From: Treponemataceae bacterium
Lineage (GTDB): Bacteria; Spirochaetota; Spirochaetia; Treponematales; Rectinemataceae
Assembly: GCA_963678065.2 (NCBI GenBank)
Contig: CAXXVZ010000005.1
Location: forward strand, 320,001-384,000
Direction: 5' to 3'
Length of the DNA stretch: 64,000 nt
Shown here: piece by piece, positions 408-5,759 of the stretch
Numbering within the stretch: position 1 is the first letter of the stretch
How the letters are laid out: the number at the start of each line of letters is the position of its first letter
The notes under the pieces: model-generated
The model's database searches: none
Seen by the model: the letters and a program-made list of their open reading frames with translations, nothing else
Told to the model about the DNA's origin: nothing
Program-made: the position numbers and the translations under genes

Positions 408-1931
408 TCAGAACTTCGCCTTGACGGACTTCAGCATCTTCACATTCTTGATGCCGGCGGGCACGAGGGCGGCGTTCTTGTCCCAGACCAGGGCGAGAGG
501 GAACTCGTCCTCGCCGAGATTCGCGCCGTTCTTGTACATGGCGATGATGAGATCGTCGTTGTGGTCCATCTCTTTCGCGTTCAGCGTGACGGTGAATCCG
601 TCCGCGGCGACGAAATCGACGGGATAGCCGGCGCGCGCGAGGGCGCTCTCGTAGGCGGGAATCGACTTGTCCTGCTTGTGCGGCGCGTTTTTCGGATCGT
701 CGACATAGCCGAGGATGAGCCAGGCCGGGAAGCCCGTGTAGCTCGCGCTCACTCCTTTGCGCTCGAAGGTCACGGTCTTGCCGTGGCAGCTCACGCAGCT
801 CTGGATCGTGGAGCGGTCGAGTTCGTGGCTCATCTTCCCCGAGAGGGAAATCCTGAAATCCTTGAAGTCCTTCTGCTTGACGACGATTTTCTTGACCATG
901 CGCACGGAGAGGTGGCCGTCGATATTCGGATTGCCCGCTCCGACCTTGATCGTGCGCACGTAGCCGGGATCCTTGGGCAGGGCCTCGCCGTCCATCATAA
1001 AGGCGAGAAGCCAGGTTCCGTCCGCCTCGTCCATGACGAGGGAGCCGGGGTAGGTCATCTCGTAGCCGTCCATGGCGACGAAGGTCACGGAGTCCTTGTC
1101 CGAGAGCTTCGTGAAGCGCTCGACGAGTGCGCGCAGCTTGACGCCGCCGTACACATTCGTGTATTTCGTGCCGGCGCTCGTCGTGTAGCTGCCCTTCGCC
1201 TCCATGTAGAGCTCGGAGGAGCGCAGGTCGTCGAGGGAATACGAGGCCTTCGTCCCGTTTATGTCGAGGTCGACGGAGAAGGCTTCGGTCGCGGTCTTCG
1301 CGGGATCGGGGGCGAGGCTCGTCTCGATGGCGACGAGGTCGCGGACCCAGAGATTCTTGGGCGAGTCACCGACGGTCTGGGGAGCGCCCCATTTCCCGTT
1401 TTCCTCGGTGGCGAGGATGAGGGCGTCGGGGGCGAGATCCTTCGTCGAGAAGGTGGCCGTGTAGCCGTCCTTCGAGACGAGGGTTACATCGTAGCCGGCC
1501 TTCCATTTAGCCTCGTCGAAGGAGTAGGGGGCGGCCGAATCGGCTCCGTCGACCATCGCGATGATCCTGGACAGGGGGACGCCGCGGTACTCGAACTTCA
1601 CCCCTTTTTTCTCGACCTGCCGCTTCACGGCCCCTGCGTTGAAAAGCTTCTCGTAATACGAGGTCACGAGGCTGTCGGCCCGGAGGCCGAGAAGCTTGAT
1701 CGTCCAGCCCTCCGTTTCTCCGGACGCGGCGGAGACCGCGTCGGGCGTCGCCTGGGCGAAGGCCGCGGCCGGCACGAGGGCGAGCATGACGAGGGCCGCC
1801 AGGGCCGCCGCCGCTAGGCGAGCCGTCAGGCGAGTCGCGGGGCGCGCGGCACGGCTCAGGGAGCCGGGAACGGCCCGGCGCGGGGTGCTGCCCGACGAGC
1901 GGAGCGTTTTTTCCATCCTGATTCTTTCCAT
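408..1931 (-). CDS. Secreted protein with three tandem molybdopterin-dependent oxidoreductase (sulfite-oxidase-like) domains and a CxxCH motif
   Basis: AAGGAGG SD before ATG 1931; signal peptide ending AAFA|QA. Three repeats of YxGxxL...V(S/A)xDG(Y/F)...L(I/L)A...VxxLxxI. CVSCH at 783-797. Confidence 0.75.
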   Translation of the reverse strand: MERIRMEKTLRSSGSTPRRAVPGSLSRAARPATRLTARLAAAALAALVMLALVPAAAFAQATPDAVSAASGETEGWTIKLLGLRADSLVTSYYEKLFNAGAVKRQVEKKGVKFEYRGVPLSRIIAMVDGADSAAPYSFDEAKWKAGYDVTLVSKDGYTATFSTKDLAPDALILATEENGKWGAPQTVGDSPKNLWVRDLVAIETSLAPDPAKTATEAFSVDLDINGTKASYSLDDLRSSELYMEAKGSYTTSAGTKYTNVYGGVKLRALVERFTKLSDKDSVTFVAMDGYEMTYPGSLVMDEADGTWLLAFMMDGEALPKDPGYVRTIKVGAGNPNIDGHLSVRMVKKIVVKQKDFKDFRISLSGKMSHELDRSTIQSCVSCHGKTVTFERKGVSASYTGFPAWLILGYVDDPKNAPHKQDKSIPAYESALARAGYPVDFVAADGFTVTLNAKEMDHNDDLIIAMYKNGANLGEDEFPLALVWDKNAALVPAGIKNVKMLKSVKAKF

Positions 1932-2037: not shown

Positions 2038-3648
2038 TTATTTCAGATTCTCCGCGATGAGCTTCGCGGCGGTTTTCTGCGTCGTCGCGACATCCATCTG
2101 CCCGGTGAGCAGAAAGCGCAAGAGCTTCCACATGACATTCTTGAAGGCGGCGTAGGATTCCGCGGGCGGAACGACAAGTCCCGTCTCGTAGCTGCGCATG
2201 AGTTGGGCGTAGTACTTGTTGTCGGTGCGGGCGGTTTCCATGGCCATGCGGCTCGCGGGCAGCTTGGAGAGCTTCGAGGTGAACGAGGCCTGAACGCCGG
2301 GCGATGTCATGTACTGGACGAGGCGGCGCGCGAGGACAGGCTTCGTCGTCCTGCGGCCGATGGCCAGTCCCTTGAAATCGAGGAGAGGCGCGAGAGCTTT
2401 GCCCGTCGCCGAAAGCACGGGATAGGGCGCGACACCGAAATCGATGCCGATCTTCGTGAACTCGGAAATGCTGTAGGAGCCCGACAGGATGAAGGCCGTC
2501 TTGCCCGAGGCAAACCAGGATATCATCGCGTCGCGCTCCGCCGGCTCGAGGAGGCCCCGCTTGTCGAGGTCGAGAAGGTAGGCGAGCGCCCTGGCCGTCG
2601 GCTCGTCGTCGACGGTGATCGATCCGTCAGGGTTCAGGATGGAGGGTTTGCCGAATCCCGCCATGAAGGGCAGGAGCCAGTAGGCCGAATACAGGTTCCA
2701 GGCCATGGGCGCCTTGAGGCCGGATCCGTCCGCCGCGCTGCTTGCGGCGATCTTCGTCGCCATGCGCTCCAGATCATCCGTCGTCCAGTCGTCGCGGACA
2801 GTCCCGCCTGTCAGTTTTTTGTTGTAGAACACGAGCTGGGCATCGAAATAGAAGGGTACGGCCCAGAATCTGCCCTCGTGGCGGAAAGCCTCGAAACCCT
2901 TGGGCACGAGGTCGTCGGTCCTGAGGTACTCCACCGACTGGATGACGCGCGCGGCGGCGAGGGCCGGGGCGTAGTCGGACTGGATCATGACGACGTCGGG
3001 GAGCGTGCCGCCGGCCCGCGCGACGGCGAGCAGCTTGGTCTGCGTGTTGGGAACATCCGTCACCCGCACGCTCAGCCCGTGCGAGGACGCAAAGCGGGCC
3101 ACTTCTTCCTTCAGCTCGGGCACGCCCTCCCAGGAAACCCATGCCTCGAGACTCTTCTCCGACAGGAGTTCGCCCGAGAGATCGACCCGCTCGACGGCCC
3201 GGAATCTCTCTGTCCCGACGACGAGGTCCCAGCCTCCCTTCGCCTCTGCGAGGTGGACCTCGAAAAGCCGCTCACCAAGGTCGTCGGATTCCCAGGCTTT
3301 TTTCCCCGTCGCGGAAGAGGCCTCGAGTCTCCAGACTTCGGCCATGAGGGGGCATATCTCGCCGAGCGCGACAGTTTTCTCGGGCGCAGGGGAAAGAAGG
3401 GAGGAGGCTGCGGCCGCACGCTGCTCGGGTTGCGCTGTGCGTTGCTCGGGTTGCGCCGCGTCCTGTCCCCGCGGCACGGCGAGGACGAGAGGACGGGCCA
3501 GGGATTTCAACTCCGCCGCGGTGACCGAGCGGATGATCTTTCCGCCCAGCCCGATGTCGAGGGCGCGAACGCCCGTCGGCAGAAAAAACAGGAAAAAGAT
3601 GATGCAGGCCTGAGCGCAGGCCGAGAGGAAGAGACTTCGCTCCCGCAC
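2038..3648 (-). CDS. Extracellular solute-binding protein (MalE/family 1) with extra N-terminal domain
   Basis: C-terminal ~370 aa has PDVV, WAVPFYFD...FYNK, GxTAFILSG and FGVAPYP motifs of CUT1 SBPs. GTG start after AAGGAGG. Confidence 0.85.
   Translation of the reverse strand: MRERSLFLSACAQACIIFFLFFLPTGVRALDIGLGGKIIRSVTAAELKSLARPLVLAVPRGQDAAQPEQRTAQPEQRAAAASSLLSPAPEKTVALGEICPLMAEVWRLEASSATGKKAWESDDLGERLFEVHLAEAKGGWDLVVGTERFRAVERVDLSGELLSEKSLEAWVSWEGVPELKEEVARFASSHGLSVRVTDVPNTQTKLLAVARAGGTLPDVVMIQSDYAPALAAARVIQSVEYLRTDDLVPKGFEAFRHEGRFWAVPFYFDAQLVFYNKKLTGGTVRDDWTTDDLERMATKIAASSAADGSGLKAPMAWNLYSAYWLLPFMAGFGKPSILNPDGSITVDDEPTARALAYLLDLDKRGLLEPAERDAMISWFASGKTAFILSGSYSISEFTKIGIDFGVAPYPVLSATGKALAPLLDFKGLAIGRRTTKPVLARRLVQYMTSPGVQASFTSKLSKLPASRMAMETARTDNKYYAQLMRSYETGLVVPPAESYAAFKNVMWKLLRFLLTGQMDVATTQKTAAKLIAENLK
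3420..3461. repeat. Imperfect 21-bp tandem duplication encoding AQPEQRT/AQPEQRA
   Basis: gctgctcgggttgcgc at 3420 and gttgctcgggttgcgc at 3441. Confidence 0.8.
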
Positions 3649-3650
3649 GG

Positions 3651-3761
3651 GATCCTCCTTCTCAAGGGTGGAAGGCGCGGAGGTTTCCCCCGGCACCCGA
3701 TGGCTTCTCGTCCGTGGGCCGCCCTTTCAGGCGGCTGTTAGGTCCGGAAGCTCGAAGGATC
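3651..3761 (-). ncRNA. Moco/Wco (molybdenum/tungsten cofactor) riboswitch-like leader, P3-less type
   Basis: Minus-strand RNA GAUCCUUCGAGCUUCCGGACCUAACAGCCGCCUGAAAGGGCGGCCCACGGACGAGAAGCCAUCGGGUGCCGGGGGAAACCUCCGCGCCUUCCACCCUUGAGAAGGAGGAUC. P1 GAUCCUUC/GGAGGAUC covers the SD; P2 carries a CCUAAC..CACGG tetraloop-receptor-like element; P4 ends in a GAAA loop. Confidence 0.75.
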
Positions 3762-3842
3762 GTATCGCTATTTTTATATCCGCAATCGCCTCGGGACCGC
3801 AAGTCCGCTCCCGCCTCACAGGCTGTCTGCGCTCTCCGGAAC

Positions 3843-5759
3843 TCAGTCCGCGGAATTCCCGATTTCTTCCTCGTCGCGCGGGGCGAAGTCTTCCAGCCAG
3901 CTTTTGGTCGCGGCTTCCGTCATGGGGCGGGCGTAGAGATAGCCCTGAATGTAGCGGGCCCCGTTCTCCAGGGCCCGTGACAGGATGCGCTTATCGCTCA
4001 CATGCTCCGCGACGATTTCGAGCCCCGACACTGAGCAGAAGGCCGCCATACCCCTGAGCAGGACAACGGCATCCTCGCGCTCCGCGGTCTCTTTCATGAT
4101 GGAGCCCGCGATCTTCACGGCGTCGAAGCCTGCCCCCAGAAGACTGGCATAGTTGGAGTACCCCGACCCGAAATCGTCGAGGTACACGAGACCTCCCGCC
4201 TCGTGCACAGAACGGATGAAGGTATCGACGCGCGAATGATCGCGGAATGTGTCATGCTCTGTGAGTTCCACGATGAGGCGCCCGGGCTTTCCCGCAGGTT
4301 TTTCCGGACGACCCGGGAGTTCTGTTCCTTCCGCTGTTCCGGAGAGCTCTCTGCAGCAGCGGCAGATCCGCTCGACGTATACGGGACGCTCGAGATCCTC
4401 GTACGTTATGTTGAAGCTCACCGGAAGCCCCGACTCCGAAGCCATAGCCCGGGCGCGGTCCAGGATGAACTCGGATATCCGCGGGCCGAGACCGAACTGC
4501 CGCGCCGCCGCAAGATATGGCTCCACCGATTCGAGGCCACTGGCCGTCCGCACGCGGGTCAGGGCCTCGATGAATCCCACACGGCTGGTGCGGGCATCCC
4601 AGACAGGCTGGAAAACCGCCTCGAAACCTCCCGAAGCCAAGGCTCTGAAAAGAACGGCCGCCCTGAGGGCGAGTTCCCCTCCCCCGTTGCCTTCGACCGG
4701 AGAATCGGAGAAAAACCACTTCCTTCCCGCGAAAAGACAATCCTCGAGGATGGAATAGGCCCCATCGAGGGCGAGGACCGCGTCCCCGCCCCGGCTGCGG
4801 AAGGCAGCGACGCAGGGGCAGAAGCGTGCCGGAGAGGATTCGAGGACACACTCGGTCTCGAAATGCTCCACGAGATTCCCGAGCAGCTCTCCGGCATCGG
4901 AGGAAGCGGGAAGCACAAAGACGAAATCCATATCCGAAATCCTGTACGGACCGCGCATCCCCCCGACACGGATACACTCTTTCAAAAGCCCGGAAACCCT
5001 GCGCGCCGCCTTTCCCGGCTCCATCGACAGCGCGATCTCCAGATCCCGGAGTGTCGCAAAGTGCATCAGGCAGAGTACATCCCCCGCGCCGATTTCGCCC
5101 CGCAGGAAGGCCGCCTGGTTCGGCAGCCCCGTCGTCTGGTCGATGTAGTGCCGGTCCAGGATGAAGCGGATCGACCTACCCTGCCGCCTTTCGTTCGCCT
5201 CCGCGATCTCGACCTGGAAAAGGATGGCTACCATCGCCATGCAGTAGGTCACGAGCGGAAATTCCATGTTCGCCCGGCCTATCCAGCCCGAATGACGTGC
5301 GAACCACAGAGACGTCACAAAAAGCGCGAGGCTCCCGCTCGCCCCGCGTCCCCAGCGCGAACCTCCGAGCAGGTAGGTGAAGGGCACGAAGCAGAAGAAA
5401 ATGACAATGTGGACGTTGCGCGAGCTTGGAAGGAAAAGCCCCGCAAAAATGCCTGCGAGGACAAAGGCGAGCACGAGGGATTGGGCCAGGACTGTCAGCC
5501 CTATCTTCCTGACAGTGAAGAAGATGGCAAAAATGGCGAGGAGGGCCGCCGCATAGCTCGCTGTGGCAGAAAAATCACCTTTTATACAGTCCGTGATGAA
5601 AAACGAGATCGGGAAAAGACTCGATACCGAGAGAGAGACGAGGGCCACTCTGAGAGAATCGCTTTTGTTGGACTCACGGATGCGTCCGAAAGCCGCCTCC
5701 GTGAGGAAATCGTGCTCGGGAATAGCCGCTTCCAGGTTTTCGGAAGAGTCTTTTTGCAT
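3843..5759 (-). CDS. Membrane-bound EAL c-di-GMP phosphodiesterase with degenerate GGDEF domain
   Basis: N-terminal TM helices; DQTTGLPN start of a GGDEF domain whose motif is degenerate (RISDMDF); EALTR, VELTE, DDFGSGYS, AEHV, IQGY. Confidence 0.88.
   Translation of the reverse strand: MQKDSSENLEAAIPEHDFLTEAAFGRIRESNKSDSLRVALVSLSVSSLFPISFFITDCIKGDFSATASYAAALLAIFAIFFTVRKIGLTVLAQSLVLAFVLAGIFAGLFLPSSRNVHIVIFFCFVPFTYLLGGSRWGRGASGSLALFVTSLWFARHSGWIGRANMEFPLVTYCMAMVAILFQVEIAEANERRQGRSIRFILDRHYIDQTTGLPNQAAFLRGEIGAGDVLCLMHFATLRDLEIALSMEPGKAARRVSGLLKECIRVGGMRGPYRISDMDFVFVLPASSDAGELLGNLVEHFETECVLESSPARFCPCVAAFRSRGGDAVLALDGAYSILEDCLFAGRKWFFSDSPVEGNGGGELALRAAVLFRALASGGFEAVFQPVWDARTSRVGFIEALTRVRTASGLESVEPYLAAARQFGLGPRISEFILDRARAMASESGLPVSFNITYEDLERPVYVERICRCCRELSGTAEGTELPGRPEKPAGKPGRLIVELTEHDTFRDHSRVDTFIRSVHEAGGLVYLDDFGSGYSNYASLLGAGFDAVKIAGSIMKETAEREDAVVLLRGMAAFCSVSGLEIVAEHVSDKRILSRALENGARYIQGYLYARPMTEAATKSWLEDFAPRDEEEIGNSAD

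Follow-up and report, generated by a model that had tools for sequence, protein, structure and literature searches.

The window analyzed here is a 64,000-nucleotide (nt) stretch of the genome of a Treponemataceae bacterium (assembly GCA_963678065.2, contig CAXXVZ010000005.1, positions 320,001 to 384,000). At its left end, on the reverse strand, lies an operon of three genes, which encode a MalE-like substrate-binding protein, a lipoprotein with a match to PF00174, and a fused ATP-binding cassette (ABC) permease. Directly 5' of this operon, beginning 73 nt past the stop codon of the upstream gene, is a riboswitch (Table 1). When the whole window was compared with 4,227 Rfam families at the gathering threshold with cmscan, the sole match was to RF01055, the family of riboswitches for the molybdenum or tungsten cofactor (Moco or Wco). 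The match spans the full model (positions 1 to 135) and scores 46.0 bits against a cutoff of 36 (E = 8.7e-8), with the columns of helix P3 left as gaps. An initial annotation, made from the letters of the window, had called the element a P3-less Moco RNA motif and proposed a comparison with the covariance model as a check; the score is above background. As an RNA, it adds one more ordinary example to a known class, within the P3-lacking subclass of RF01055.

Table 1. Features of the riboswitch and operon, and further RF01055 RNAs of this genome. Positions are those of the window unless preceded by a handle (G000 is this genome). aa, amino acids; AOR, aldehyde:ferredoxin oxidoreductase; SD, Shine-Dalgarno sequence.
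Feature	Position	Strand	Basis or context
Moco/Wco riboswitch aptamer (RF01055), P3-less form	3639..3770	(-)	cmscan
P1, 5' arm GAUCCUUC	3754..3761	(-)	Sequence; P1 pairs covary in relatives
P1, 3' arm GGAGGAUC, containing SD GGAGG (3658-3654)	3651..3658	(-)	Sequence, Rfam alignment; purine block kept in relatives
GTG start codon of binding-protein gene	3646..3648	(-)	Paired in outer P1 extension in Rfam alignment
P2 with internal loop, CCUAA/ACGG receptor-like bulge and GAAA-capped inner hairpin	3703..3751	(-)	Sequence, Rfam alignment
P4 with invariant GAAA tetraloop (3687-3684)	3673..3698	(-)	Sequence, Rfam alignment, relatives
P5 (U3672-A3662, C3671-G3663) and loop	3662..3672	(-)	Rfam alignment, covariation
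Gene 1, MalE-like substrate-binding protein (secreted; 536 aa; additional beta-rich domain of ~135 aa at the N terminus)	2038..3648	(-)	SBP_bac_8, SBP_bac_1, predicted structure
Gene 2, secreted protein/lipoprotein, 507 aa (with the start codon taken by the database cluster), with a predicted central sulfite-oxidase/PruR-type fold between two copies of another domain	408..1931	(-)	PF00174, predicted structure
Gene 3 (5' part), fused MalF-like/MalG-like ABC permease, 610 aa	1..360	(-)	BPD_transp_1, two stretches
Second P3-less RF01055 RNA, SD in P1	G000:C5:316656-316779; locus L004:10656-10779	(+)	64.4 bits; 3.2 kb left of the window, 7 kb from the window RNA
Third RF01055 RNA, with 8-bp P3 GGAGGGGG/CCCCCUUC	G000:C3:1074233-1074390; locus L005:8233-8390	(-)	53.2 bits; before 4Fe-4S protein (ferredoxin) and AOR

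The riboswitch and its expression platform

Every element that the initial annotation had read from the window is present in the sequence. Helix P1 consists of 8 bp, one of them a G.U pair, and the Shine-Dalgarno (SD) sequence GGAGG is buried in its 3' arm, with a 5-nt spacer to the GTG start codon; in the Rfam alignment, the GTG is itself paired, in a continuation of P1 on its outer side. The CGAGC entry is present at 3754-3750, and P2 holds an inner GAAA-capped hairpin between CCUAAC and CACGG. P4, GGGUGCCGGGG-GAAA-CCUCCGCGCCU, forms 10 of its 11 pairs, with one C.C mismatch, and is separated from P2 by a gap of only 4 nt (3702-3699), leaving no P3. The feature that had been misjudged is P5. 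Described as weak, it is the 2-bp helix of the RF01055 model itself, and its outer pair covaries among relatives (among 55 distinct rows, UC..GA in 25, CC..GG in 23 and UC..GG in 3, with 4 rows missed by the pattern). The GAAA tetraloop is invariant, and its putative receptor reads CCUAAC/CACGG in the window, retaining CCUAA and GG of the usual form, CCUAAG/UAUGG, which is found in relatives such as that at locus L006.

The Escherichia coli moaA leader (PMC2408646) shares with the window RNA helices P1, P2, P4, and P5, the CCGAGC and GGAAAGGAG-type junctions, the GAAA tetraloop with its receptor-like bulge, and the placement of the ribosome-binding site inside P1. The window RNA differs from it in lacking P3 and in its downstream genes, which in place of moa or mod products encode a sugar-type ABC system and a lipoprotein with a pterin-type fold.

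A scan of one genome per species yielded 62 loci encoding the PF00174 lipoprotein, mostly from Spirochaetota and 5 of them labeled Thermotogota. RF01055 was found upstream of the operon and on the same strand in all 12 syntenic loci scanned with Rfam, at 52.3 to 70.3 bits. A P3-less covariance model built from 14 training rows (RNAs of relatives plus the window RNA, which by construction scores 95.6 bits) matched ahead of the operon in 52 of the 62 loci. The 10 loci that gave no match are uninformative, because at most 1,535 nt lie upstream of their lipoprotein match and the binding-protein gene alone occupies ~1.5 kb. Riboswitch, binding protein, lipoprotein, and fused permease follow one another in this order in 6 of 6 loci for which open reading frames (ORFs) were listed. 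The junction between P2 and P4 is 4 to 5 nt long in every relative's row that covers it, so none of these relatives has a P3.

The helices are also supported by the substitutions that they carry. Pairing holds in 94.5% of the cells of the relatives' alignment, compared with 79.2% in column shuffles, none of 500 of which reached the observed value, and it falls to 43 to 52% when partners are slid by 1 to 3 columns. Both sides vary at 12 of 18 pairs, including 4 of 4 in P2 and 6 of 9 in P4, and 97.3% of the cells of P1 are paired. These counts are supportive and not independent of the model, since the alignment was fitted to it and leans to its structure. One syntenic riboswitch (L054:730-884, plus strand; 42 bits with the P3-less model) carries an insertion of ~55 nt within P4. 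At another locus, a cobalamin riboswitch (L064:13092-13285, plus strand; 71.9 bits) lies ~5.7 kb 3' of the lipoprotein match.

The arrangement of SD and start codon around P1 is conserved as well. In 53 of 56 aligned rows, an ORF of 300 codons or more begins 1 to 10 nt past a purine block (AGGAGG, AGGGGG, or AGGAAG) in the 3' arm of P1. Three rows depart from this: L064 has a 20-nt spacer, L063 is truncated at a contig end, and the third is the P3-bearing RNA of this genome. A search of 3500-4000 of the window gave no terminator-like site. Because the SD recurs inside P1 in nearly all rows and no terminator-like site is present there, the translational OFF switch put forward in the initial annotation is the best reading of the platform, and it is well supported by these sequence comparisons. 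The E. coli moaA RNA likewise has its ribosome-binding site inside P1 (PMC2408646). A promoter scan detected nothing 5' of the aptamer, its lone promoter-like site lying inside the ORF (3560-3533); a TATAAA at 3778-3773, spotted by eye, has no evidential weight.

It is highly improbable that the aptamer is a decayed or nonregulatory copy, or an ON switch. The window RNA, at 46 bits, scores below all 12 syntenic relatives scanned with Rfam; besides the mismatch in P4, three non-pairs occur in P2, and the receptor is not of the usual form. Its folding energy is no better than that of shuffled sequences (z = -1.18; 28 of 200 shuffles fold as well), a nonsignificant result for which thermodynamic folding was dropped as a test of the RNA, and P1 is missing from the minimum free energy structure (-56.0 kcal/mol). 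However, P1 is present in the centroid structure at -55.9 kcal/mol, within 0.1 kcal/mol, and two near-isoenergetic states with and without P1 are at least compatible with a switch. Against decay stand the conserved junction nucleotides and GAAA loop, the intactness of all helices, and the retention of both the syntenic position and the SD-in-P1 layout in 52 loci.

We consider it probable that in this P3-lacking member of RF01055 cofactor binding would close P1 and silence translation of the three-gene uptake operon. The metal-pterin cofactor would bind the aptamer and stabilize P1, whose 3' arm holds the SD, and the closed helix would deny the ribosome access to the SD and GTG, blocking initiation on the binding-protein gene. 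A cell replete with cofactor would in this way receive feedback and shut off the uptake operon.

Proteins encoded by the operon

The first and third genes encode components of a CUT1-type ABC importer: the binding protein resembles MalE, and membrane domains like those of MalF and MalG are fused in a single protein. The binding protein matches SBP_bac_8 (7.9e-25) and SBP_bac_1 (9.7e-21) of Pfam. Its predicted structure (predicted local distance difference test [pLDDT] score, 91.5) resembles the maltotriose-binding protein of Thermotoga maritima (Foldseek E = 3.5e-27, TMt 0.85). A likeness between its extra N-terminal domain and the gene 2 protein was considered and set aside, hhalign giving a probability of 0.3. 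The permease gene continues past the left end of the window to G000:C5:318528, where the end of the operon is convergent with the neighboring gene. Its first half is of the MalF/GlcT type (2.3e-29; MalF, residues 54 to 300) and its second half of the GlcU/MalG type (residues 392 to 594).

Upstream of the riboswitch, on the same strand, is a gene for a membrane protein with an EAL (cyclic di-GMP [c-di-GMP] phosphodiesterase) domain (window 3843-5759, 1.2e-39). Pterin binders of the PruR type signal to c-di-GMP enzymes. At locus L013, the upstream gene is on the opposite strand, and the adjacency of the EAL gene may be due to chance.

Gene 2 encodes the unusual component. Its one Pfam match is to PF00174, the molybdopterin-binding domain of oxidoreductases (1.4e-15), and 22 aligned family members are 43 to 82% identical to it. 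Most members carry, by eye, a Sec-type lipoprotein signal with a lipobox Cys and no twin-arginine motif. In the predicted structure (pLDDT 82), Foldseek matches are to sulfite oxidases, enzymes of the sulfite dehydrogenase type, and PruR. Residues 211 to 355 align by VIA-align with chicken sulfite oxidase (Z = 15.6, root mean square deviation [rmsd] 2.7, 138 residues, 25% identity) and with PruR 7kp2 (Z = 15.4, rmsd 2.7, 133 residues). Across four PruR structures (7kou, 7kom, 7kp2, and 7rkb), the Z scores of this central domain are 13.8 to 15.4, with rmsd values of 2.6 to 2.8 over 126 to 133 residues. Sequence identity is 25 to 27% to sulfite oxidase (137 to 138 aligned residues), versus 14 to 20% to PruR. 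The two flanking domains are alike in secondary structure and reach Z scores of only 5 to 6, to unrelated beta folds. A model of the protein as three sulfite-oxidase-type domains was consequently rejected, since the match (Z ~15) is restricted to residues 211 to 355. Sequence searches of the Protein Data Bank returned nothing meaningful with the profile of the gene 2 family and, with the central domain alone, a best match to SorA at an E value of only 0.09; in the ESM Atlas, nothing was found beyond PF00174 clusters. The motif TTSAGT is invariant in the family, and its Ser may occupy the place of the Mo-binding Cys of sulfite oxidases. In the third domain, residues 377 to 383 include C-V-S-C-H, which resembles a heme c attachment motif; just the second Cys and the His are invariant across the 22 aligned relatives.

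PruR offers the closest precedent for a pterin-binding protein of this kind, with a sulfite-oxidase-like fold that lacks the Mo-binding Cys and binds pterin outside the cytoplasm (PMC11194511). PruR and the gene 2 protein share secretion and a sulfite-oxidase-like fold. PruR is nonenzymatic, with a Trp in a PW motif and no Mo-ligand Cys, and it is a single domain that binds small non-Moco pterins and signals to a DcpA-type c-di-GMP enzyme. The gene 2 protein instead has three domains, and its gene sits within an ABC importer operon headed by a Moco/Wco riboswitch. By its predicted structure it shares the PruR fold, but it is not classed as a PruR.

Structure prediction also supports an interaction between the lipoprotein and the binding protein. 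When residues 30 to 536 of the latter were modeled together with residues 74 to 507 of the former, the complex scored 0.72, versus 0.00 for the best of three controls. Among solved complexes, 116 of 157 attain this score, as do 2 of 215 mismatched pairs; these counts apply only approximately here, since alignments of our own were supplied. Separate runs shared at least 60% of contacts, and the pLDDT of the partners was at least 82. The predicted interface joins the first domain of the lipoprotein to the binding protein, including the extra N-terminal domain of the latter.

Distribution of the operon and its possible substrate

Seven features were cross-tabulated by hand in a sample of 151 genomes of the order, this genome included. 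The lipoprotein (E up to 1e-40) was found in 25 genomes, AFOR_N, the domain of the aldehyde:ferredoxin oxidoreductase (AOR) family, in 71, MoaC in 69, MoeA_N in 67, MoCF_biosynth (MogA-type) in 74, a TupA-like protein (E up to 1e-20) in 52, and PF00384 in 68. The operon is present in 14 of the 14 AOR-bearing genomes that have no MoaC, MoeA_N, MoCF_biosynth, or TupA-like match (G031, G035, G039, G047, G053, G065, G071, G077, G081, G099, G113, G115, G135, and G147; completeness, 88 to 98%), compared with 11 of the 57 remaining AOR-bearing genomes. None of the 80 genomes without an AOR has it, so within the sample the operon is confined to AOR-bearing genomes. The 14 marker-less genomes belong to six genera in two families and hence represent fewer than 14 independent events. 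A riboswitch stands ahead of the operon in 13 of them, and in the last (G147) the contig ends first. The operon was not found, with the query used, in 200 further genomes of the phylum, and the pattern has no replicate outside the order.

Whole-genome searches of five of the marker-less genomes (G031, G035, G053, G065, and G099) gave 10 RF01055 matches. Four precede the operon, three precede an orthologue of the aldehyde dehydrogenase gene described below, two (both P3-bearing) precede the AOR loci of G099 and G065, and one is a P3-less RNA at a contig edge in G053. These genomes hold cofactor-dependent enzymes and cofactor riboswitches and have no detectable cofactor synthesis, metal insertion, or tungstate uptake, and the phyletic pattern thus suggests that the operon imports the ready-made cofactor. 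The AORs may have company as users of the cofactor, since the 14 genomes also hold one or two genes like those of the dimethyl sulfoxide reductase family (PF00384).

The logic of such a system is familiar from riboswitch-controlled salvage importers, such as BtuFCD under the cobalamin riboswitch and ThiBPQ under the thiamine pyrophosphate riboswitch, in which the aptamer senses the finished cofactor and turns down the genes for its import. For the Mo/W pterin cofactor, full-text searches of the open literature found no bacterial importer and returned only Moco uptake by nematodes.

Alternatively, the riboswitch might be real and the operon unrelated to cofactor import: the substrate would then be a sugar-like compound, tungstate, or molybdate, the latter two perhaps in complex with an organic carrier, or the lipoprotein would be a periplasmic Mo/W enzyme served by the transporter. 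The MalE/MalF/MalG type of the binding protein and permease fits this alternative, as does the 25 to 27% identity of the central domain to sulfite oxidase. Free Mo/W cofactor is, in addition, very labile outside proteins. Metal transporters are commonly found under RF01055 RNAs (PMC2408646, PMC11725836). We nevertheless regard the alternative as unlikely. Metal uptake alone would be useless to genomes without a MoaC, MoeA_N, or MoCF_biosynth match, yet all 14 AOR-bearing genomes of this kind have the operon, and an enzyme that requires the cofactor should not be turned off by it. Cofactor-loaded enzymes are exported by the twin-arginine translocation (Tat) route, whereas a Sec-exported lipoprotein leaves the cell unfolded and cofactor-free, as the signals of most family members predict. 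The Ser in TTSAGT, possibly at the position of the Mo-binding Cys, would point in the same direction.

Metal preference of the RNA and significance of the operon

A further question is which metal the sensed cofactor carries. By the tupA/wtpA host criterion of Regulski 2008, this genome counts among hosts with tungsten-metabolism genes, having TupA/B-like genes and nine AFOR_N matches, which represent its AOR-family genes. The TupA/TupB-like pair adjoins moeA, moaA, and moaC, in a TupABC-like cluster; we call its products TupA/B-like because their scores with the TupA model (223.6 bits) and the TupB model (183.5 bits) are under the NCBIfam cutoffs of 400 and 320. The genome also has a ModABC-like set, which adjoins an XdhC-type AOR maturation factor. 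The published correlation (PMC2408646) is that 58 of 176 RNAs lack P3 and that 17 of 19 organisms with P3-less RNAs have tungsten-linked genes. A study of Eubacterium limosum (PMC11725836) treats P3-less RNAs as tungsten dependent: five such RF01055 RNAs are found there, ahead of WOR1, tupABC, two ABC transporters, and focA, and FetABC1 and FocA are upregulated under tungsten limitation. The window RNA has in common with this "Tuco" subclass the absence of P3 and a host with tungstate-transporter-like and AOR genes. The subclass also includes ABC transporters under such RNAs and one case in which a translation start is sequestered directly (PMC11725836); the E. limosum transporters are read as iron transporters, unlike the operon here. 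Within the subclass, two Syntrophomonas wolfei RNAs precede sulfite-oxidase-like genes (PMC2408646). Taken with the genome content, these precedents lead us to favor a preference of the window RNA for the tungsten form of the cofactor.

This genome has three RF01055 RNAs, two P3-less and one P3-bearing. The second P3-less RNA is directly 5' of a gene for L-glutamate gamma-semialdehyde (pyrroline-5-carboxylate [P5C]) dehydrogenase (TIGR01236, 752 bits against a cutoff of 613.6), in a unit convergent with the uptake operon, and P3-less model matches lie beside an orthologue of this dehydrogenase in 18 of 29 relatives' loci. The dehydrogenase may be a cofactor-independent enzyme that is turned off when Mo/W cofactor is available. 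At one locus, two P3-less matches (L103:1320-1468 and L103:3122-3243, both on the minus strand) flank the aldehyde dehydrogenase orthologue, and the second may head another regulated gene.

The third RNA retains P3, and its SD lies ~50 nt past the aptamer, a layout that suggests an ON switch; the P3-bearing RNAs before the AOR loci of G099 and G065 have an enlarged P5. A P3-bearing RNA before an AOR might be taken as a counterexample to the P3 rule. We set this aside, because the AOR that follows reaches the cutoff of NF007354 (1,065.9 against 868 bits), probably the model of the E. coli YdhV-type (Mo-type) clade. YdhV carries bis-Mo-molybdopterin (PMC9103625). If NF007354 is indeed of the YdhV type, the published split, with P3 for Mo and no P3 for W, holds here, insofar as annotations can be read in this way.

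A rather unlikely alternative is that the same RNA and OFF mechanism serve to sense Moco, or do not discriminate between Mo and W, the absence of P3 being a trait of lineage or expression platform. The P3 rule is a correlation with exceptions, which include the two S. wolfei RNAs, and when the E. coli RNA was deprived of P3, it lost regulation without a switch in specificity (PMC2408646). The literature searched contained no demonstration of tungsten-specific binding by a P3-lacking member. ModABC-like genes are present in this genome as well, and P3 status tracks the platform, P3-less RNAs having the SD in P1 and P3-bearing RNAs before the ferredoxin-AOR genes a remote SD. Both RNA types are also kept in genomes without a TupA-like match. 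Conversely, the P3-bearing RNA precedes an NF007354-type AOR, in agreement with the published split insofar as this is readable, and the nine AOR-family genes and TupABC-like cluster likewise favor tungsten.

Together, these observations lead us to propose, tentatively and at a probability of roughly 45%, that the operon is a riboswitch-gated importer of finished W/Mo pyranopterin cofactor and that free-living spirochete lineages without cofactor synthesis or tungstate uptake run AOR-family enzymes on scavenged cofactor. The surface lipoprotein, with its sulfite-oxidase-type pterin pocket, would capture the cofactor and pass it to the MalE-like binding protein and fused permease. Whole lineages would have dropped cofactor synthesis and tungstate uptake, with their AOR-family enzymes fed by scavenging.

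Several points weigh against the readings of the RNA and operon given here, in addition to the lability of the cofactor and the low score, imperfect helices, and unremarkable folding energy of the window RNA. The binding protein belongs with those for sugars (MalE type), which bears on the importer function in particular, and in the lipoprotein only the central domain shows the pterin-binding fold. An ATPase gene is missing from the operon in this genome, and none was searched for elsewhere in the genome; shared ATPases encoded elsewhere are usual in the CUT1-type ABC family. The tungsten preference is possible on the strength of a published correlation and genome content, and it has to accommodate the genomes that keep both RNA types without a TupA-like match. 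Eleven genomes with biosynthesis markers also carry the operon. Most of the compared genomes are in 20 to 690 contigs at 73 to 99% completeness, and the four missing markers lie within ~6 kb in this genome, so that one lost contig would remove all of them, although such a loss in 14 of 14 genomes seems unlikely. MoaE (PF02391) was found in only 6 of the 151 genomes and not in this one, which makes it uninformative as an extra pathway marker and family-based pathway calls imperfect. In this order, another protein may stand in for molybdopterin synthase, or the enzyme may have diverged too far; MoaA, MoaC, and MoeA occur in ~67 to 69 genomes. A MOSC-domain gene follows moaC in this genome.

The RNA itself is ordinary, its family having been known since 2008, but the operon that it controls is not. 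P3-less RNAs have been described ahead of sulfite-oxidase-like genes (2008) and of ABC transporters (2024). Enzymes that use Mo or W are assumed to depend on the cell's own synthesis of the cofactor. A riboswitch-gated importer, if confirmed, would mean that bacteria can be auxotrophic for the cofactor and draw this very labile molecule from their community, and it would provide a handle on the ligand of P3-less RNAs and on the movement of the cofactor between cells. With three conserved genes, the operon is a small and testable candidate for cofactor scavenging.

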